Source: Escherichia phage vB_EcoS_ESCO41
DNA: 50,800 bases
Sequence record: NC_047820.1
Direction: 5' to 3' (one strand)
Part shown: one piece after another, positions 25,518-37,508 of the stretch
How positions within the stretch are numbered: the stretch's first letter is position 1
How the letters are laid out: each line of letters begins with the position of its first letter
Made by a program: the position numbers and the translations under genes
Notes under the pieces: generated by a model
Told to the model about the DNA's origin: nothing
The model's input: the letters and a program-made list of their open reading frames with translations, nothing else
Database searches by the model: none

Positions 25518-28500
25518 ATGATTAAAAATAGTGTAGTGACGGGCAGAAAGGGTGGAAGCAGTAAACCTCACACCCCACAAGAGATGGAAGATAACCTGAT
25601 CTCAATCAATAAGATTAAGGTTTTGCTCGCCGTTAGTGATGGTGAGGTTGACGCGAATTTCTCATTAAAGGACTTATATCTTAATGACGTACCTGTAATT
25701 GCACCCTCTGGAGAAGTTAACTATGAAGGCGTTAAGGCTGAATTTCGCCCAGGCACACAGACGCAGGACTACATCAAGGGATTTAACGACACGGCAGCTG
25801 AGTTCACCGTAGGTCGTGAATTGACGACTACGACTCCTTACGTGATCTCGGTAACGAATAAGCAGCTATCGGCCGTTCGCGTAAAAATCCTGATGCCTCG
25901 CGGCGTTACCACGAAAGAAAACGGCGATATGGTCGGCGTGGTCGTGAAGTGGGCCGTAGATATGGCGGTTGATGGAGGGAGCTACCAGGAAGTTTTGCTG
26001 GACACTATAGACGGGAAAACACTAAGCGGATATGACAAAACGAAGCGCATTGACTTGCCGTCGTTTAATAGCCAAGTCCTGCTTCGGGTTCGTCGTGTCA
26101 CTCCAGATTCTAATAATTCAAGAGTTGTTGACGCGATCAACATTCAGTCATATGCGGAAGTTATTGACGCTAAATTCCGTTATCCTCTGACTGGCCTTAT
26201 TTACGTTGAGTTTAACAGTGAGCTGTTCCCGCAGATCCCAAGCATTAGCACGAAAAAGAAATGGAAGATCATCAACGTTCCGAGCAACTACGACCCAGTG
26301 CTGAGAGAATACAGCGGCACATGGGATGGCAGTTTTAAAAAAGCGTGGTCAAATAACCCCGCTTGGGTGCTTTATGATTTGATTACCAATCAGAGATACG
26401 GGCTCGATCAACGTGAATTGGGGATCGCGGTCGATAAGTGGTCGCTCTATGACGCTGGGCAATACTGCGATCAGAAAGTTCCTGACGGTCACGGAGGGTT
26501 GGAGCCTCGCTACCTTTGCGATGTGGTGATCCAATCTCAGGTTGAAGCGTATAATCTGGTTCGAGATATTTGCTCAATCTTCCGAGGGATGAGCTTCTGG
26601 AACGGTGAGAGCCTTTCAATTGTCATCGACCGACCGAGAGAGGCTTCATACATTTTCACTAACGACAACGTCGTTGATGGCTCATTTGCCTACACGTTCG
26701 CGAGCGAAAAAAGCATGTACACAACTTGTAACGTCACGTTCGACGACGAGCAGAACATGTACAGCCAGGACATCGAGGGGGTATTCGACCTTAACGCTTC
26801 ATTACGATTCGGTCATAACCCAACGGCAATAACTGCAATCGGGTGTACTCGACGCAGTGAGGCTAACCGCCGAGGCCGCTGGGTTCTTAAAACAAACCTT
26901 CGAAGCACGACCGTGAGTTTTGCAACTGGCCTTGAGGGTATGATTCCGATGATTGGCGACGTAGTGGCTATCGCTGATAACTTTTGGTCAAGCAACCTGA
27001 CGCTTTCATTATCAGGTCGTGTCATGGAAGTATCTGGACTGCAAGTGTTCACTCACTTTAAAGTCGATGCTCGTGCTGGTGACTTTATTATCGTCAATAA
27101 GCCTGACGGTAATCCGGTTCGCCGTACTATTTCAAAGGTATCGGCAGACGGAAAGACGATTGAGCTTAATGTTGGTTTTGGTTTTGATGTTAAGCCCAAC
27201 ACTGTTTTCGCAATCGACAGAACTGACGTGGCTTTGCAGCAATACGTCGTAACTGGAATCACGAAGGGTGACGGTGATGATGAGTTCACATACAGCATCA
27301 CGGCGGTTGAGTATGATCCCAATAAATACGACGAGATCGACTACGGAGTAAATATTGATGACCGACCAACCAGTATTGTAGATCCTGACAACATGCAGCC
27401 ACCAAAAAACATTGTTGTTTCATCATACTCTCGAATCGTGCAGGGGATGAGCGTTGAGACAATGGTGGTAGGATGGGATAAAGTTCAGTACGCAAGCAAG
27501 TACGATGTGCAGTGGAGAAAGGATAACGGTAACTGGATGAACGTACCGCGTACAGCAAGCTCAGAGATTGAGGTTGAAGGGATTTATGCGGGTAATTATC
27601 ACGTACGCGTAAGGAGCATATCAAGCGGTGGAAACACGTCTCCATGGTCTGATGTTGTCAGCGTTGGGTTGACTGGTAAGATTGGGAAGCCAGATAAACC
27701 AACAGTCATAACCGCATCTGACGACCAGGTGTTTGGGATACGGGTTAAATGGGGATTTCCAGAAGGTTCTGGCGATACTGCATACACGGAGTTGCAGCAG
27801 ATACCAGATAATGGTGCTGGAGGTCACACTGGTGAGGAGAATGCGAGTCTATTAACAATGATTCCATACCCACAGTACGAGTACTGGCACTCGACACTGC
27901 CAGCAGGATATGTAAACTGGTACAGGGCAAGATTGGTAGACAGGATTGGTAACGCCTCTGACTGGTCTGACATTGTTCGCGGAATGGCAAGCGATGACGT
28001 TGAGTCCATCATTGGAGAAATAAAGGTTGATATCGAGAATTCCGATGGGTTTAAGTACCTACAGCAGAACGCCATTGAGTCAAACGGAGCTATTCAGGCG
28101 CAGGCGGAATCAATTCTTGAAAACGCACTTGCAAACGATACTGACGTGCGACGAATGACCAAGGAGAACGGCAAGAGAAAGGCTGAATACGTTCAGGCAG
28201 TGAATCTTATTGCCGATGAAACTCAGGCTCGCGTAGAGGCTCTCACGGCCCTTAAGGCGCAGATAGATGATGAAGTTGTAGCATCGATTACAGAAGTTCA
28301 GACTGCATTAGCCACAGAGACAGAAGCAAGGACTACAGCAGACACGGCTTTGAGCGCTCGACTTGGCGATACGCAGGCCTCGCTTAATGAAAAACTTGAC
28401 TCTTGGGTAGATGCGGAATCTGCTGGCGCTCAGTACGGCGTTAAGTTAGGACTCAAATACAATGGGGTTGAGTATAGCGCAGGGATGAGCATGGAACTTG

Positions 28501-28898
28501 TTGGAAGTGGTGCTGGCGTTAAGAGTCAGTTCATCTTTGACGCAAACAGATTCGCTATCAGTAACGGGATTGGATCTGGTTCCGGTCAGTGGGCATTGCC
28601 TTTTGTTGTTGAGAGCAACCAGGTGTTCATCCAGAGCGCGGTGATCAAGGATGGCTCAATCACTAATGCCAAGATTGGCAACAGGATTCAGTCAAACAAC
28701 TACGTGGCAGGTAGTGCTGGATGGGCGATTGACAAGAGTGGGGGTGCTGAACTCAATAGCGCAACAGTTCGCGGAAGCCTATATGCGAACAATGGTAACT
28801 TTGCGTTTAATGGAACAAACAATACTGTTCAGATTAACAACAATGGAATTACAGTAAACTTACCGAATGGAGGAAGGGTTGTAGTTGGAGTATGGTAA
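25518..28898 (+). CDS. central tail fibre / host specificity protein (lambda J-like)
   Basis: 1126 aa, last gene of the M/L/K/I/J-like array. Confidence 0.8.
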   Translation: MIKNSVVTGRKGGSSKPHTPQEMEDNLISINKIKVLLAVSDGEVDANFSLKDLYLNDVPVIAPSGEVNYEGVKAEFRPGTQTQDYIKGFNDTAAEFTVGRELTTTTPYVISVTNKQLSAVRVKILMPRGVTTKENGDMVGVVVKWAVDMAVDGGSYQEVLLDTIDGKTLSGYDKTKRIDLPSFNSQVLLRVRRVTPDSNNSRVVDAINIQSYAEVIDAKFRYPLTGLIYVEFNSELFPQIPSISTKKKWKIINVPSNYDPVLREYSGTWDGSFKKAWSNNPAWVLYDLITNQRYGLDQRELGIAVDKWSLYDAGQYCDQKVPDGHGGLEPRYLCDVVIQSQVEAYNLVRDICSIFRGMSFWNGESLSIVIDRPREASYIFTNDNVVDGSFAYTFASEKSMYTTCNVTFDDEQNMYSQDIEGVFDLNASLRFGHNPTAITAIGCTRRSEANRRGRWVLKTNLRSTTVSFATGLEGMIPMIGDVVAIADNFWSSNLTLSLSGRVMEVSGLQVFTHFKVDARAGDFIIVNKPDGNPVRRTISKVSADGKTIELNVGFGFDVKPNTVFAIDRTDVALQQYVVTGITKGDGDDEFTYSITAVEYDPNKYDEIDYGVNIDDRPTSIVDPDNMQPPKNIVVSSYSRIVQGMSVETMVVGWDKVQYASKYDVQWRKDNGNWMNVPRTASSEIEVEGIYAGNYHVRVRSISSGGNTSPWSDVVSVGLTGKIGKPDKPTVITASDDQVFGIRVKWGFPEGSGDTAYTELQQIPDNGAGGHTGEENASLLTMIPYPQYEYWHSTLPAGYVNWYRARLVDRIGNASDWSDIVRGMASDDVESIIGEIKVDIENSDGFKYLQQNAIESNGAIQAQAESILENALANDTDVRRMTKENGKRKAEYVQAVNLIADETQARVEALTALKAQIDDEVVASITEVQTALATETEARTTADTALSARLGDTQASLNEKLDSWVDAESAGAQYGVKLGLKYNGVEYSAGMSMELVGSGAGVKSQFIFDANRFAISNGIGSGSGQWALPFVVESNQVFIQSAVIKDGSITNAKIGNRIQSNNYVAGSAGWAIDKSGGAELNSATVRGSLYANNGNFAFNGTNNTVQINNNGITVNLPNGGRVVVGVW

Positions 28899-28904
28899 TA
28901 GATA

Positions 28905-28926
28905 AAGCCCCTTAATTGGGGCTTTT
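28905..28926. terminator. bidirectional terminator between convergent J-like and minus-strand genes
   Basis: AAGCCCC-ttaatt-GGGGCTT flanked by T-runs. Confidence 0.6.
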
Positions 28927-28929
28927 CTT

Positions 28930-29886
28930 TTAATACATGTTTGGGGTAAAAGGAAGTGCCATTGATATGTTTGTATCGAATGGAAATTGAGCACCTGATT
29001 GCGTTGAGTAGTTACCAATTACAGTTCCTGGGGCTGCTCTAACATTTCCACCTGACATACATATTCCCTTATACCTAAGATTGTTGTAACCTCCTGTCAC
29101 TCTTGTTGTTGCTCCACATCTAAGTATAGGAAAGAACCCACCAACATATTGCCAGTTGTTATTGATCTGAATGAACCCACCAAGGACAAATGGCCTCCTC
29201 ACACTTGAGAACACTATCTGCCCGGCGGGATTGCTCATTGTAATGCCAGGGCCAGCTGGCGGTGGTGAGTTGTTGAATATAACCAGATTCACATATGCAC
29301 TTGCCGCAACATCATCTGTACCTCCGTAGTTTATATCCCTACACCATATCGTTGAACCATCTGATTCAAGTGATACGTTTGGGTTATCCCACATGCCAAA
29401 AGGTATTCCAGGAACCGGAAGGCTTGCTGCACCGTTAACTTGCAAACCACCTACGTACGCCGCACTCATCAATCTCGCGTTGTTTGGTATGGCTGTAAAG
29501 TTCGTTGAGTTCTCTACAAGCAACCCCTGATTTCCAGCTGTAGCAGGTAGTATCTCAAAACAACTGCCGTAGAATCTTAATAGTCTACCATTCGAACCAT
29601 TGAAATTTCCGATCCCAATGCGCCCTACAGAATCGTTAACCTTTGAGAAGCTATTGAGGAAGTAGACCTCTGGAACAACATCAAAATCATCAACATACAC
29701 AGCCTGGCTTGGTAGGCAAAAAGCTGTTGAACCAGGTGTCATTGCCAATCCGAAGTCCCATGTTGAGTTAGCAGAATCAAACCCGTCAGCCTGAATTGCA
29801 CCTGACACGGCTGGCGCTCTTAATCCAGCCGTTATCTGCATAGGAGGTCTTCCGTCATTCAAGTCTATAAATATACCCTGAGGCAT
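28930..29886 (-). CDS. hypothetical Gly/Asn-rich protein (possible fibre or receptor-interaction protein); start ATG 29886
   Basis: 318 aa; RBS AAGGAG 7 nt upstream; TAATG overlap with the lipoprotein gene. Confidence 0.5.
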   Translation of the reverse strand: MPQGIFIDLNDGRPPMQITAGLRAPAVSGAIQADGFDSANSTWDFGLAMTPGSTAFCLPSQAVYVDDFDVVPEVYFLNSFSKVNDSVGRIGIGNFNGSNGRLLRFYGSCFEILPATAGNQGLLVENSTNFTAIPNNARLMSAAYVGGLQVNGAASLPVPGIPFGMWDNPNVSLESDGSTIWCRDINYGGTDDVAASAYVNLVIFNNSPPPAGPGITMSNPAGQIVFSSVRRPFVLGGFIQINNNWQYVGGFFPILRCGATTRVTGGYNNLRYKGICMSGGNVRAAPGTVIGNYSTQSGAQFPFDTNISMALPFTPNMY

Positions 29887-30128
29887 TATTTCCACTCCTT
29901 ACTACCGTGATCTGCAACGGAGCCGCCGTAACCTCCGCCATTGGCCTTAATTCCATCGTAGCGCACGTCAACTTCTCCAGCCGGCACAACCACACCATTT
30001 TTCCATTTAGCCACGCACACTCCGTTTGATTGCGTTGCACACCAACCATCAGGGCGAGGACCAGAAGAACAACCTACCATCATGATTGCTGCTGCGGCGA
30101 TGATTGAAAGTTTGATTAAGTTAGTCAT
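29886..30128 (-). CDS. small lipoprotein, Cor-like superinfection-exclusion candidate
   Basis: Signal peptide plus lipobox MVGC in [22 protein letters not shown]; about 80 aa; adjacent to tail-fibre genes as cor is in FhuA-dependent phages. Confidence 0.45.
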
Positions 30129-30168
30129 TTCTAATTCCTCATTAAGTGCGTTTCGTTTCGATGGAGTA

Positions 30169-30211
30169 ATAGTATCGCATCCTTGCGATCAGTGTTTAGC
30201 AATTAGTGCTA
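30169..30211 (-). promoter_or_regulatory. palindrome-promoter cassette (minus): TAGCACTAATTGCTA + 22 bp + TACTAT
   Basis: Palindrome (plus 30197-30211) overlaps the Rha-like stop; leader CCATCGAAACGAAACG at plus 30149-30164. Confidence 0.6.
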
Positions 30212-30856
30212 TTTCTTTTCCAGCAGCAGCTTGATATCAATGCCGAGATTATTCTCAATCAGTCCGGTCAGCGCATCAGTCTTTTCCTTAAGGGCGAAGC
30301 ATTGAGCTTCATATTTAAATCTTTCCTCCATCTCATCAGAACGACCGACCCAACACTGGCGAGCCTCACAAGCCAACATGTCGAGCTTTTCATCGGTATT
30401 CTTATCCATCAGCAGGATCTCATTTATTCTTTGCTCCGCAACAATGCGCTGGCTCAGGTGTGCATTTTGCGCATTAGCTACACCAAGCATCATGCGCGCC
30501 TCTTTTAGTTCATCAATACTTACCATCTGGCTGATTACCTCAGCTTGCTTTTTAACTAACACCTCAAGCTCATGAAGCCTACGGATAACTTTGTGGCGAA
30601 GCAAGACGCTGTAGCCAGTGATTAGCGTTTCGGTGAGCTCCTTGTCTAGAAGAATCTCAGAATTATAACCTCGACCATCTTTAAGTATCTGATATTGCTT
30701 ATCATCCAAAACTGGATGATCGTTATATTGTAACAACTCATTGATCATATCCCTTGCATCCCTCATTACGTGGAAGTGCTCCTTTCCAGTTAATCCAGCG
30801 ATTTCCTTTGTGCTCATCATGGTTTTTGGTTGTTCTTTGTACGCTTTAATGTTCAT
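30209..30856 (-). CDS. Rha-family phage regulatory protein (antirepressor-like); start ATG 30856
   Basis: MMSTKEIAGLTGKEHFHVMRDARDMI resembles the Rha N-terminal domain; RBS GAGAGATTAAA before 30856; longer ORF-track N-terminus is probably 5' UTR. Confidence 0.5.
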   Translation of the reverse strand: MNIKAYKEQPKTMMSTKEIAGLTGKEHFHVMRDARDMINELLQYNDHPVLDDKQYQILKDGRGYNSEILLDKELTETLITGYSVLLRHKVIRRLHELEVLVKKQAEVISQMVSIDELKEARMMLGVANAQNAHLSQRIVAEQRINEILLMDKNTDEKLDMLACEARQCWVGRSDEMEERFKYEAQCFALKEKTDALTGLIENNLGIDIKLLLEKK

Positions 30857-30926
30857 TTTAATCTCTCTATATGTTTTGACTGCGAAAATTTCGTATTCAA
30901 ACGGCACCATCGCCGCCATGCGCCTA

Positions 30927-30969
30927 AATATACCCAGATATAGCCAGTTGTCTTTAGCAATTCGTGCCA
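30927..30969 (-). promoter_or_regulatory. palindrome-promoter cassette (minus): TGGCACGAATTGCTA + 22 bp + TATATT
   Basis: Plus 30955-30969 palindrome with one half-site mismatch; -10 at plus 30927-30932. Confidence 0.5.
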
Positions 30970-31035
30970 TTTATCGCCAATTCCACCATAAATCACGGTT
31001 ACACGTAACCGATGTAACTCGATGTATACAATCTC

Positions 31036-31165
31036 TTCCGCGAAAAATGATATACGCGCTGTTACGCTGATTTACGCAATGGTTACATTAAAATATCTAT
31101 ATATATCAACCTTTTACTCTTATTATTATTATTATATATATTACTGTGTATATCATGTAACTACT
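31036..31165. repeat. AT-rich element paralogous to 252-344: ATACGC-type repeats, (TTA)n tract, TACTGTGTA motif
   Basis: Aligned by eye to the left-end element; lies between divergent transcription units. Confidence 0.55.
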
Positions 31166-31366
31166 TCTATAGAGTGTTCCGATTATAAATTTCTAATATG
31201 TACATTTATACAGTATTTAATCATACGTATACCAATGCACCATCCGATGAAAATGATATACACGATATACGCGACGTTTACATTGAGCTATAGCTGGTCC
31301 GGACAGTCATTTTATGTAACTACTAACTATGTATACACCAAGTTACAGATATATACGCGTAACCTA

Positions 31367-31394
31367 TTGACTAATGCAACCAATAGCGTATAGT
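31367..31394 (+). promoter_or_regulatory. sigma70-type promoter TTGACT-N16-TATAGT for the recombination operon
   Basis: -35 31367-31372, -10 31389-31394, then leader CATCAACAACGAACGAGG and ATG 31428. Confidence 0.55.
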
Positions 31395-31427
31395 CAGCCA
31401 CATCAACAACGAACGAGGATTAAAGAG

Positions 31428-32468
31428 ATGACCAAACCACTGTTTCAATATTTCACTTCAGAAGAAATGAGCAACGACTTTTATCACAGTAAAGATGAAT
31501 GGACTGCCGAGTATGTCTCTGGTTCATCGTTAAGCAAGATTCACAGCACATGCCCTGCGGCGTGGAAGTTCGAAATGAACTCTACGACTAAGGCTCTTGT
31601 TTTCGGCACGCAGTCACACACAAACTTTGAGAGTAAGGCTCTTTTTGAACGTCAATATCGCCGCGCACCGAAAGAAAGCGAGATTGAAAACGTGATAACA
31701 AGCCAGGCGGCATTGGCAGCTAAGTTAAAATCATTTGGCCTGACTGGTACAAGCGGAAAGCAATATCCAGAGTTGATTAAAATGATGGTTGATTGCGGCG
31801 AAGACCTTAACGTCATGTGGCTGATTGACATGATCGCACAATGTCAGGCGTGGGCCGACGGAGTGGAACTGGTTAAGGCTGAGGACTACGACGCCTGCGT
31901 CAGTATGCGCCAGGTTCTTGAGATGATTCCTGAACATAACGCCTGCATGAACAGTGAGACTGCATTCCGTGAGTATTCATTGTTTGGCGTGATTTGTGGC
32001 GTTAAAGTTAAGGTGCGACTTGACCATGTTGACATCGTTAAGGATCTAGAGGCAATACGGCGCATGGGCTACGATCCTGAGATTCACCCTGAAATTGTCG
32101 TCATCACTGATTACAAAACGACAATGAGCGCTAACCCGACCGAGTTCCCTCGCCTGGCGTTCAATCATGGCTACTACCTCAAGATGGCATTGCAGCGTGA
32201 CTTGTTCGTTAAATGCTTTGAAGAAACGCGACCTGTGGTTGTGCGCTTGCTGGCCCAGGAGAAGAAAGAACCTTACTTGCCTATGGCGTACCGGATGAGC
32301 GGCGATCAGCTTAAGATTGGGCGTGCTCAGTATATGAGCGTTATTCATACTTTCTCAATGTGCGAAGCGAATGACGTATGGCCTTCATACAGCAACGGCG
32401 AGCCAGAGATTGAGCTTGAGACTCCTGATTGGATTAAAAAGCAGTTCAATCACATTTTGGAATCGTAG
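31428..32468 (+). CDS. PD-(D/E)xK-family recombination exonuclease-like protein; start ATG 31428
   Basis: Motif IVVITDYKTT with acidic residues upstream; directly upstream of Erf-like and SSB genes; ORF-track start 31374 lies inside the promoter. Confidence 0.5.
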   Translation: MTKPLFQYFTSEEMSNDFYHSKDEWTAEYVSGSSLSKIHSTCPAAWKFEMNSTTKALVFGTQSHTNFESKALFERQYRRAPKESEIENVITSQAALAAKLKSFGLTGTSGKQYPELIKMMVDCGEDLNVMWLIDMIAQCQAWADGVELVKAEDYDACVSMRQVLEMIPEHNACMNSETAFREYSLFGVICGVKVKVRLDHVDIVKDLEAIRRMGYDPEIHPEIVVITDYKTTMSANPTEFPRLAFNHGYYLKMALQRDLFVKCFEETRPVVVRLLAQEKKEPYLPMAYRMSGDQLKIGRAQYMSVIHTFSMCEANDVWPSYSNGEPEIELETPDWIKKQFNHILES

Positions 32469-37204: not shown

Positions 37205-37233
37205 TTAATTTTACTCTTTAGCTTTTCGTGCCA
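37191..37233 (-). promoter_or_regulatory. degenerate palindrome-promoter cassette (minus): TGGCACGAAAAGCTA + 22 bp + CATAAT
   Basis: Same spacing as canonical cassettes; -10 lies in the hairpin loop. Confidence 0.4.
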
Positions 37234-37234
37234 T

Positions 37235-37423
37235 CTAAACAACAAAGTGATGAGTCATTCTCCGCGACAAAAAAGACTCAAGATATCTTTCAATTACTTC
37301 CTTTTTACCAGTTTTTTTGTTGTAGGCGTATGGAGTTCCGCTGGTGTTGTCAACTTTACCAACAAATTTGTCGCCATCAACGTTAAAGATTGCTACGAAT
37401 TTACATTTAGGTAATTTGTTCAT
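37235..37423 (-). CDS. hypothetical protein (62 aa)
   Basis: ORF preceded by leader CACATCGAAAGCAGG and RBS. Confidence 0.45.
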   Translation of the reverse strand: MNKLPKCKFVAIFNVDGDKFVGKVDNTSGTPYAYNKKTGKKEVIERYLESFLSRRMTHHFVV

Positions 37424-37465
37424 TTTGTATATCCTCGTTTGGTTTGCCTGCTTTCGATGTGGTCA

Positions 37466-37508
37466 ATCATACCTCATCAATGAGAAATGTCTTTAGCTTT
37501 TCGTGCCG
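37466..37508 (-). promoter_or_regulatory. degenerate palindrome-promoter cassette embedded in the 3' end of the HTH gene: CGGCACGAAAAGCTA + 22 bp + TATGAT
   Basis: Plus 37494-37508 palindrome-like, -10 at plus 37466-37471, then leader and gene 37235..37423. Confidence 0.45.

Follow-up and report, generated by a model that had tools for sequence, protein, structure and literature searches.

A predicted LptD-directed host-recognition and exclusion module with an adjoining Rha-like cassette in the virulent coliphage vB_EcoS_ESCO41

Introduction

At the end of the tail operon of Escherichia phage vB_EcoS_ESCO41, three genes on the minus strand face the gene of a gpJ-like tail-tip protein. What does this unit contribute to infection, and why does it include an Rha-type regulator? 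ESCO41 is a virulent T1-like coliphage (Drexlerviridae, Nouzillyvirus), and the window analyzed here is its whole genome sequence of 50,800 nucleotides (NC_047820.1). A first-pass annotation of this DNA had described the three genes as translationally linked, equipped with their own cassette promoters and coding for an Rha-like regulator, a Cor-like superinfection-exclusion lipoprotein and a Gly/Asn-rich protein that may bind the receptor. The regulator was considered unexpected in an apparently virulent genome.

Results

Organization of the locus

The tail-tip gene, the shared terminator and the three minus-strand genes are arranged as follows.

25518-28898, plus strand: gpJ-like central tail fiber/tail-tip protein, 1126 aa (Pfam and PHROG matches)
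28904-28925, both strands: bidirectional intrinsic terminator of the tail operon and the minus-strand unit (terminator scan, RNA folding)
28930-29886, minus strand: receptor-binding protein (RBP), 318 aa, DUF6453, predicted binder of the extracellular LptD face (PF20051, 9rpt_C, AF2)
29886-30128, minus strand: putative superinfection-exclusion outer-membrane lipoprotein, 80 aa, Rtp45 family (PF24052, 9rps_D)
30209-30856, minus strand: accessory Rha-domain protein, 215 aa (Phage_pRha, phrog_8235, AF2)

The gpJ-like protein matched the Pfam families FNIII-A_GpJ, Phage_Tail_Tip and Phage-tail_3 and phrog_31 ('central tail fiber J'). All three minus-strand genes (28930-30856) converge on its gene, so that the unit does face the end of the tail operon as first described. 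The gpJ and RBP stop codons are 31 nt apart, and the hairpin between them serves as terminator for both sides: on the plus strand it was called by the terminator scan, and for the minus-strand RNA folding gave -15.4 kcal/mol (z = -3.9). The same convergent gpJ/RBP/lipoprotein layout is present in Rtp, OzMSK, G8, XT34 and GaoY1-9D. An Rfam scan of positions 28500-31700 at E <= 1 gave no match, and neither did NCBIfam and PADLOC searches with the RBP, the lipoprotein and the Rha-like protein.

The proposed translational linkage held for two of the three genes. The lipoprotein gene overlaps the RBP start in a TAATG, in which the last A of the TAA is the first A of the ATG, and AAGGAG is located 8 nt upstream. 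In contrast, 80 nt lie between the stop codon of the Rha-like gene and the lipoprotein ATG, and this gap houses a promoter-like cassette. Judged from these junctions, translational coupling is limited to the lipoprotein and RBP genes.

Promoter-like motif cassettes

The gap cassette and a second one upstream of the Rha-like gene share the same architecture.

30129-30212, minus strand: promoter-like cassette preceding the lipoprotein gene (motif at 30212-30192; hairpin in the 17-nt spacer; TACTAT at 30174-30169)
30927-30970, minus strand: promoter-like cassette preceding the Rha-like gene (motif at 30970-30950, direct repeat D1; 17-nt spacer; TATATT at 30932-30927)

In both cassettes, a -10-like hexamer follows the motif after exactly 17 nt, and with these copies the idea of separate cassette promoters for the Rha-like and the lipoprotein genes was borne out as far as promoter-like sequence goes. 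The 21-nt motif, ATAGCACGAATTGCTAAAsnn, had nine matches in the genome at <=3 mismatches (0 expected by chance), and a looser core of it had 16 (0.6 expected); altogether the ESCO41 genome carries at least 13 copies. Behind the TACTAT of the lipoprotein cassette, a conserved leader (CATCGAAACGAAAC) and then the ribosome-binding site follow, and the same promoter-like element precedes the lipoprotein gene in Rtp, XT34, OzMSK and G8.

The motif contains the inverted repeat TAGCA-N5-TGCTA, but at the 17-nt position, where a canonical -35 hexamer would be expected, it has AAAsnn. It may therefore act as an activator or UP-like site rather than as a -35 element. Two other readings were discarded. 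At a distance of 22 nt, TTGCTA within the motif is too remote from the -10 for a -35 hexamer, and a sigma-54 -24/-12 reading of TGGCACGAATTGCT fails because GG and GC stand 2 nt too close to each other and because a -10 of the sigma-70 type sits at a fixed 17 nt. A literature search with the motif sequence returned only chance matches in unrelated papers.

The Rha-like gene is an optional cassette

The presence of an Rha domain in the third gene was confirmed, albeit marginally. Phage_pRha (PF09669) scored 30.1 bits against a cut-off of 29.9, with residues 14-98 covering profile positions 1-90 of 91; for the 253-aa version of the open reading frame the score was 29.8 bits. This longer version is the mechanical open reading frame to 30970 and is also annotated for ESCO41. 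We disfavor it, since most homologs have 215 aa, the PHROG profile begins at its residue 38, and its start codon, the ATG at 30970, falls within the promoter-like motif, ahead of the -10. Against phrog_8235 ('anti-repressor') the protein matched at 1e-85.

Behind the Rha domain, a long-helix C-terminal domain extends from about residue 100 to 215, and the AF2 model shows helices at 84-149 and 152-204. When this model was compared with the PDB by Foldseek, no significant match was obtained. The N-terminal domain weakly resembled winged-helix regulators, every E-value being above 0.1 (MarR, RacA and Xis at E > 0.4). The protein is probably a DNA-binding protein of winged-helix type, and oligomerization through the long helical hairpin is to be expected.

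N-terminal domains of the Rha type are known from hundreds of other phage records. The C-terminal helical domain of about 115 aa, which has no Pfam family, is confined to T1-like and related small siphophages (about 60 records). Alignment showed that the Rha domain can be swapped for an unrelated one (annotated KilA) on a C-terminus that remains 85-100% identical. The gene lies in a segment with sharp boundaries.

30170-30999, minus strand: 830-bp Rha cassette bounded by two motif copies (blastn breakpoints, junction alignment)

This segment is missing from XT34, GaoY1-9D and Rtp according to blastn breakpoints, and the cassette is likewise missing in OzMSK. In p111, the Rha-like gene stands beside a lipoprotein gene and an RBP gene of Rtp-type length, the RBP clade being inferred here from gene length only. 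In IME253 and ZL19 it stands beside a locus of another gene organization, which excludes that the cassette is specific to LptD-type loci. Because close relatives do without the cassette and because it is also found beside different RBP alleles and locus types, it is accessory and its presence in a virulent phage is not surprising. The surprise voiced in the first-pass annotation was thus unfounded: the gene is an optional cassette carried by about 60 T1-like and related small siphophage records.

One alternative is that the Rha-like protein is functionally tied to its neighbors, for instance as a dedicated timing regulator of the exclusion/RBP operon. In every record cross-checked for this neighborhood (G8, CEB_EC3a, TR2, p111, MK9072xx series) the gene lies directly upstream in the same orientation, and the inverted repeat of the motif could be an operator. 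However, the four close relatives that lack the gene (GaoY1-9D, OzMSK, Rtp, XT34) carry the same RBP and lipoprotein, the motif is distributed genome-wide and is found in phages without the gene, and its association with the differently organized locus of IME253 and ZL19 and the free exchange of its DNA-binding domain also speak against such a tie, which we consider unlikely. The Rha-like gene is dispensable for receptor binding and exclusion, and its most likely role is that of an accessory early regulator of host, prophage or phage transcription.

The 318-aa protein belongs to a family of LptD-specific receptor-binding proteins

Counted from the ATG, the RBP gene encodes 318 aa (321 aa as mechanical open reading frame from a GTG), with 12.3% Gly and 9.1% Asn. 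Residues 7-298 span the entire profile of PF20051 (DUF6453; positions 1-291 of 291) at E = 7e-139 (462.6 bits, cut-off 25). A full-length phmmer match (E = 8e-66) was obtained with chain C of PDB 9rpt, which is the RBP of phage Oekolampad on open LptDE. Sequence identity was 75% to OzMSK_038, 42% to the Oekolampad RBP and 39% to Rtp44. Structure prediction, which the first-pass annotation had suggested for this protein, gave an AF2 model (pLDDT 83.3, pTM 0.82) whose sole PDB match was again 9rpt_C (E = 2.5e-20, TM 0.91 normalized to target, rmsd 2.5 A). These data support the earlier suspicion of receptor binding and identify the 318-aa protein, on grounds of homology and predicted fold, as a putative tail-tip RBP. 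The PHROG labels 'membrane protein' and 'moron' for this protein are regarded as misannotations.

The predicted target is the extracellular face of LptD. The record annotation of OzMSK_038 cites experimental LptD evidence, and the OzMSK paper describes lptD-linked resistance and an engineered LptD deletion strain; for this RBP the link to LptD comes from host genetics rather than from binding assays. In all tested small siphophages, without exception, DUF6453-type loci downstream of gpJ match LptD specificity (PMC8594841; 10.64898/2026.04.02.716166). Certain LptD phages require a second receptor via gpJ, such as NupG in Bas01 (10.64898/2026.04.02.716166). The last ~40 aa of the ESCO41 gpJ are identical to those of OzMSK and G8, and for residues -300 to -100 XT34 is closest (95%). 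In these alignments the gpJ tip co-varies with the RBP clade, its last ~40 residues matching phages that carry the same clade.

The 80-aa lipoprotein is a close homolog of Rtp45

The small lipoprotein scored 134.6 bits on PF24052 (cut-off 27) and matched Rtp45 in PDB 9rps_D at E = 3e-41; its PHROG family (phrog_4281) is of unknown function. Identity to Rtp45 amounts to 69/79 residues (87%), and residues 1-60 differ at just two positions. The signal sequence ends in MMVG-C20-SS with the lipobox MVGC, and the +2 residue is Ser and not Asp, as expected for sorting to the outer membrane. Cys30 and Cys38, the disulfide pair of Rtp45, are retained. In the strand that pairs with LptD (residues 30-35), CATQSN replaces CATQAS, so that four of the six residues are identical (A34S, S35N), and the C-terminal tail carries a 4-residue Gly-rich insertion. 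The structure of Rtp45 has been solved on the periplasmic face of LptDE (PDB 9rps) and a mechanism has been given (Dunbar et al. 2025, 10.1101/2025.07.07.663478). The notion of a small lipoprotein working as superinfection-exclusion factor beside the tail-tip gene is well supported by this family membership.

Could the RBP and the lipoprotein be directed at some outer-membrane protein different from LptD, with an RBP body that diverged while the DUF6453 fold was conserved? The RBPs for which LptD as receptor has direct support from genetics or structure (Rtp44/Bas01 clade, Oekolampad) share only 39-42% identity with that of ESCO41, and RBP loci are horizontally exchanged and diversify fast (PMC8594841). 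Against this stand the close relation of the lipoprotein to Rtp45, the 75%-identical OzMSK RBP tied to LptD and the exceptionless match between family and receptor. Such a different target is quite improbable, and LptD remains the predicted one.

The assignment of the lipoprotein to the Cor type could not be upheld; it belongs to the PF24052/Rtp45 family. A Cor-type protein blocking FhuA would fit the size, lipobox, genomic position and orientation known from T1 cor, and the G8 record names its homolog 'Cor superinfection exclusion protein'. However, T1 Cor missed the PF24052 cut-off of 27 bits with a score of 17.7 and aligned with the ESCO41 protein in BLASTP over 51 residues only (31% identity), signal peptide included. 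Moreover, homologs of ST31 and ST32, the FhuA-type recognition genes of T1, were not present after gpJ, where the DUF6453 RBP is encoded instead, and the lipoprotein is nearly identical to one solved on LptD. We give a FhuA-blocking protein hardly any chance. Most likely, as judged by analogy, the lipoprotein is a functional and positional counterpart of Cor and Llp with LptD rather than FhuA as target.

A present or past temperate lifestyle, in which the Rha-like protein would serve a lysogeny switch as anti-repressor, is suggested by the names 'Rha' and 'anti-repressor' and by N-terminal homologs in Pseudomonas prophages and temperate Salmonella phages, but is extremely doubtful, since integrase and excisionase are reported absent from ESCO41 (PMC10269720), the annotation of the collinear XT34, of the same genus, lists no integrase, excisionase or repressor, the Drexlerviridae backbone is virulent, and many phage records annotate the same domain merely as DNA-binding protein. 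The genome is thus virulent, as it had appeared at first sight.

Discussion

We are rather confident that the ESCO41 locus is a module for host recognition and exclusion in a virulent T1-like phage, and that an unrelated accessory cassette has been inserted alongside it. The present analysis establishes the homologies and folds, the coupling of the genes, the limits of the modules and the fact that the Rha cassette is dispensable; LptD binding, the exclusion mechanism and the location in the virion we infer from published work on homologs.

The following sequence of events can be proposed. Host RNA polymerase would start at the promoter-like cassette around 30212-30169 and transcribe the lipoprotein gene together with the RBP gene, in a single coupled message that ends at the terminator common to gpJ; the Rha-like gene, as an optional cassette apart from these two, would be served by a promoter copy of its own. 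The RBP would sit non-covalently on the C-terminal tip of the gpJ-like protein and insert into the extracellular face of the LptDE lipopolysaccharide translocon as terminal receptor, and this insertion would trigger irreversible adsorption. The lipoprotein, once exported and lipidated at Cys20, would end up in the inner leaflet of the outer membrane, where it could bind the periplasmic side of LptD between LptE and LptM. Its hairpin, pushed up the lumen, would displace extracellular loop 4 of LptD and shut out LptD-dependent RBPs, and progeny or competing phages would therefore not attach to debris or to cells already infected.

For the type species of Nouzillyvirus, a phage used in an anti-APEC cocktail, this provides a sequence-based receptor call. 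With LptD as predicted receptor, mutations in lptD loops are the expected route to resistance, and cross-exclusion is to be expected when such phages are combined. Within this one genus, gpJ tip plus RBP body, lipoprotein plus RBP N-terminus, and Rha cassette differ from one another in their closest relatives. This modularity is useful for engineering receptor swaps. The biology of the RBP and the lipoprotein is already published, and what is new to test is confined to two things, the promoter-hairpin cassettes and the orphan domain at the C-terminus of the Rha/KilA proteins; we regard the cassettes as the more interesting by-product.

Comparison with known systems

The LptD-specific RBPs (Oekolampad/Bas18 9rpt, Rtp44/Bas01, OzMSK_038) share with the ESCO41 RBP full-length homology, the predicted fold, the convergent site right after gpJ and about 25 conserved N-terminal residues. 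The ESCO41 protein differs from the solved or genetically validated clades at 39-42% identity and falls into a 318-320-aa clade (OzMSK, Rogue1, e4/1c, Shfl1, GaoY1-9D) with 75-95% identity within it.

With Rtp45 of phage Rtp, the ESCO41 lipoprotein has in common the PF24052 family at 87% identity, the Cys20 lipobox, the Cys30-Cys38 pair, and the gene position with a 1-nt overlap with the downstream RBP gene. Rtp45 has 76 aa, four fewer than the ESCO41 protein with its Gly-rich insertion near the C-terminus, and the latter is paired with another RBP clade (39% identity to Rtp44). Cor (T1, phi80, N15) and Llp (T5) are also small outer-membrane lipoproteins at the host-recognition locus, T1 cor matching in position and strand, and they block the phage's own receptor from the periplasmic side, as is predicted for ESCO41. 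By the curated threshold they are a separate family, and they target FhuA instead of LptD. The published mechanism of the Rtp45 type is steric loop displacement, in contrast to the long-range allostery of Cor and Llp.

The Rha-like protein resembles the phage DNA-binding proteins of the Rha/Ant/KilA-N/Bro-N type, whose domain shuffling Iyer, Koonin and Aravind reportedly described in 2002, in its N-terminal Rha domain over the whole profile and in the N-terminal exchange on a near-identical C-terminus. It differs in its threshold score and lacks a KilAC/ANT C-terminal domain.

The motif cassettes recall the PeSL ('promoter-early stem-loop') elements, mobile regulatory cassettes of T4-type phages that Arbiol and colleagues are said to have reported in 2010. 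Both combine a repeated intergenic promoter-like sequence with a stem-loop and flank optional small genes at indel boundaries, but the ESCO41 cassettes are unrelated in sequence, belong to another phage family and carry the hairpin inside the spacer of the putative promoter. A 62-aa open reading frame at 37235-37423, also in such a cassette, found no match in PADLOC. As a tentative proposal, to which we assign somewhat less than even weight, the motif-hairpin--10 units may be mobile regulatory cassettes of Drexlerviridae comparable to PeSL, which would act as promoters and as short patches of homology where the ExoVIII/Erf recombination system encoded by the phage itself inserts, deletes and swaps accessory genes; the Rha-like gene (30170-30999) and the 62-aa open reading frame would then be captured cassettes, with the helical C-terminus of the Rha/KilA proteins as effector module.

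Gene organization and genomic context

The sequence of the window is that of the T1-like siphophage vB_EcoS_ESCO41 (ESCO41). ORF reading located the three minus-strand genes of the unit where the first-pass annotation had placed them, in convergent orientation to the gpJ homolog:

25518-28898, plus strand: gpJ homolog, 1126 aa (central tail fibre or tail-tip protein)
28904-28925: GC-rich hairpin between the gpJ and RBP (receptor-binding protein) stops
ATG 29886 to stop 28930, minus strand: 318-aa protein
30128-29886, minus strand: 80-aa lipoprotein
ATG 30856 to stop 30209, minus strand: Rha-like protein, 215 aa

The gpJ homolog matches Pfam FNIII-A_GpJ, Phage_Tail_Tip and Phage-tail_3 as well as phrog_31. 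The hairpin was scored as a plus-strand terminator in our scan and its minus-strand fold amounts to -15.4 kcal/mol (z = -3.9). Translational linkage, which had been proposed for all three genes, holds for the lipoprotein and the 318-aa protein (TAATG overlap, AAGGAG 8 nt upstream) but not for the Rha-like and lipoprotein genes, which are separated by 80 nt from stop to start.

ESCO41 is the type species of Nouzillyvirus (Drexlerviridae), under which XT34, GaoY1-9D and p111 are also classed, and its left 25 kb are about 87% identical to the E. coli phages TH30, PH1062, XT34 and p111. Integrase and excisionase have been reported to be lacking in ESCO41 (PMC10269720) and no lysogeny genes are annotated in the collinear relative XT34.

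The 318-aa protein and the receptor

At its core, the minus-strand unit corresponds to the module for LptD recognition and exclusion already known from small siphophages. Sequence and structural modeling both classify the 318-aa protein (12.3% Gly, 9.1% Asn) as a predicted tail-tip receptor-binding protein, as had been suspected before. It covers the entire profile of Pfam DUF6453 (E = 7e-139) and matches over its full length chain C of PDB 9rpt (E = 8e-66), which is the RBP of phage Oekolampad (Bas18) on open-state LptDE. The structure prediction that had been proposed for this protein was carried out with AlphaFold2 (37 homologs; mean pLDDT 83.3, pTM 0.82), and 9rpt_C was the sole match of the model in the PDB (E = 2.5e-20, target-normalised TM 0.91, rmsd 2.5 A), the second-ranked structure having an E-value of 0.22. 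Pairwise identity amounts to 95% with the GaoY1-9D protein, to about 76-78% with those of Rogue1, e4/1c, C119 and Shfl1 and to 75% with OzMSK_038, and drops to 42% for the Oekolampad RBP and to 39% for Rtp44, the RBP of phage Rtp.

The record of OzMSK_038 describes an LptD-binding RBP on experimental grounds, and the corresponding paper describes strains that had become resistant spontaneously as well as an engineered strain with an LptD deletion (PMC13035648). According to Maffei et al., the terminal receptor can be predicted from the allele at the "bona fide RBP locus" that follows gpJ, and the allele type found here pairs with LptD (PMC8594841). A 2026 screen of 255 phages confirmed four unrelated RBP families (FhuA, BtuB, LptD, YncD), with identity above 30% as the definition of each (10.64898/2026.04.02.716166). 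LptD is thus very probably the receptor of ESCO41. This assignment is based on homology, and we found no published receptor assignment for this phage.

Invariant columns of the family alignment are located in the N-terminal 25 residues or so and around residues 111-130. Model confidence is lowest at residues 117-134 and low across the first 20 residues or so, and the tail-proximal part is poorly ordered in the published RBP-LptDE structure (9rpt). From these three observations, we infer that the conserved but poorly modelled segments form the gpJ-docking surface.

DUF6453 homologs with 44-49% identity are also encoded in Citrobacter, Salmonella and E. coli, on chromosomal contigs of megabase size (database hits P0145-P0176), where they are presumably located in prophages; the LptD-type RBP family therefore extends beyond virulent phages.

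The 80-aa lipoprotein: Rtp45 or Cor

On sequence criteria, the 80-aa lipoprotein (lipobox MVGC, Cys20, Ser at +2) is assigned to the family of Rtp45, the exclusion lipoprotein of phage Rtp, and not to the Cor family. Its Pfam PF24052 score is 134.6 bits (cut-off 27), and it shares 69 of 79 residues with Rtp45, residues 1-60 differing only at A34S and S35N. In the solved complex (9rps), Rtp45 binds LptDE from the periplasmic side and lies between LptE and LptM. A disulphide links its Cys30 and Cys38, and the strand formed by its residues 30-35 pairs with LptD 318-323. Its hairpin extends up through the lumen and shifts extracellular loop 4 by as much as 20 A, so that the RBP can no longer bind. 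Cys30, Cys38 and four of the six residues of the 30-35 strand are kept in the ESCO41 protein.

The gene of T1 Cor occupies the equivalent position and strand in T1, but the Cor alignment with the ESCO41 lipoprotein spans just 51 residues at 31% identity, signal peptide included, and T1 Cor reaches only 17.7 bits on PF24052, below the cut-off. The label "Cor-like", given in the first-pass annotation, was therefore right for role and location and wrong for family and target, the homolog being LptDE-bound; the exclusion role suggested there was a good guess, to which homology with the Rtp45 family points.

Rtp45-family homologs (40-51% identity, E 1e-9 to 1e-6) also occur in podophages of the Gordonclarkvirinae/Kuravirus group with genomes of about 75-78 kb, e.g. 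SU10 (KM044272), ES17 (NC_070984), Bas87 (PQ850594), Bas90 (PQ850626) and Bas91 (PQ850614). [quoted passage not shown] In Klebsiella T1-like phages, e.g. vB_KpnS_FZ10 (NC_049840 / MK521904), homologs of the DUF6453 RBP (about 31% identity) and of the Rtp45-like lipoprotein (about 65%) are uncoupled and lie about 10 kb apart.

Module boundaries

Nucleotide homology to Rtp, XT34 and p111 covers 29825-30170, i.e. the lipoprotein gene and about the first 20 RBP codons, and is lost across the RBP body. For gpJ residues -300 to -100 from the C-terminus, the nearest relative is same-genus XT34 (95%). For the last 100 residues OzMSK and G8 are nearer (86% vs 79%), and the final 40 residues or so are identical to both. 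From these breakpoints, two blocks can therefore be distinguished: the gpJ tip, terminator and RBP body are contiguous and form the first, and the RBP N-terminus and lipoprotein gene, with different nearest relatives, form the second. This division fits a gpJ C-terminal tip bearing specificity-associated features (10.64898/2026.04.02.716166).

The Rha-like gene is an optional cassette

The Rha-like gene forms an optional cassette of its own. Its 215-aa product matches the whole Pfam Rha profile with residues 14-98 (30.1 bits, cut-off 29.9; margin reported as 0.1 bit) and phrog_8235 "anti-repressor" at 1e-85. In the AF2 model (pLDDT 72.8), a small alpha/beta domain at the N-terminus leads into two very long helices (84-149, 152-204), and Foldseek returned winged-helix resemblances alone, all non-significant. 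Among homologs, the C-terminal 115 residues or so are 85-100% identical and the N-terminus holds a Rha-type domain or an unrelated one annotated KilA; in AugustePiccard, the Rha domain is joined to another C-terminus. These exchanges are a textbook case of domain shuffling.

Rtp, OzMSK, XT34 and GaoY1-9D lack the gene, and in OzMSK a DNA methylase occupies its place.

Rha-like gene and RBP in Nouzillyvirus (RBP clade of p111 and XT34 judged mainly by gene length and missing nucleotide homology over the RBP body)
ESCO41: Rha gene present; 318-aa RBP
GaoY1-9D: Rha gene absent; RBP clade as in ESCO41
XT34: Rha gene absent; 311-aa RBP
p111: Rha gene present; 76-aa lipoprotein, RBP of Rtp-type length

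IME253 and ZL19 carry a homolog at the equivalent genome position, adjoining a locus of other gene organization. From this context and the patchy presence across RBP types, it follows that the Rha-like gene is tied to position and not to LptD recognition; calling such a regulator unexpected in a virulent genome was thus overstated. Compared with XT34, GaoY1-9D and Rtp, ESCO41 has an 830-bp insertion (30170-30999), the ends of which fall at a directly repeated 21-23-nt element, present in two copies. The database annotation ("anti-repressor", 253 aa, start 30970) is probably 38 codons too long, because ATG 30970 lies within the promoter-like motif and most homologs have 215 aa (window 30857-30970).

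Next to the cassette, divergent units are separated by about 395 bp of non-coding, AT-rich sequence (30973-31366). The conservation of this stretch is about 90% in comparison with Rtp, XT34 and GaoY1-9D despite differing flanking genes; the stretch contains direct repeats (31037-31063 / 31243-31278; 31150-31165 / 31309-31324) and gave no Rfam match. A near-consensus sigma-70 promoter candidate (TTGACT-16-TATAGT; 31367-31394, plus strand) overlaps ATG 31374, the first start codon in the exonuclease VIII ORF. The true start of that ORF is probably ATG 31428, in agreement with the 346-aa XT34 homolog.

Promoter-like motif cassettes

The "cassette promoters" noted earlier correspond to a repeated promoter-like element with a -10-like hexamer, present upstream of the lipoprotein and Rha-like genes. 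Its motif, ATAGCACGAATTGCTAAAsnn, has 9 matches in the window at up to 3 mismatches (none expected by chance), and a looser core has 16 (0.6 expected).

Starts of the 21-nt motif
Plus strand: 1885, 2182, 5274, 32465, 40039, 41068, 42382
Minus strand: 30212, 30970, 37234, 37509, 48678, 50271

All copies are oriented along local transcription, and 13 of them are followed by a -10-like hexamer (TATAGT, TATATT, TACTAT, CATAAT or similar) at a distance of exactly 17 nt (16 nt once). The spacer region usually contains a 5-8-bp GC-rich hairpin (summed MFE -100.9 vs -43.7 kcal/mol in shuffles). Many copies run into a conserved leader, CATCGAAACGAAAC, followed by an RBS and the ATG. A canonical -35 hexamer is missing where one would be expected, and although the element looks like a sigma-54 site, its spacing does not fit one.

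In Rtp, XT34, OzMSK and G8, the element is likewise located ahead of the lipoprotein gene, and further copies occur elsewhere in their genomes. As with the Rha cassette, two motif copies (37509 and 37234) exactly bound a second insertion relative to XT34 (37232-37490), which contains a 62-aa ORF (37235-37423, minus strand); a gene replacement starts just downstream of copy 41068. In T4-type phages, PeSL are regulatory cassettes, and the motif cassettes of ESCO41 resemble them.
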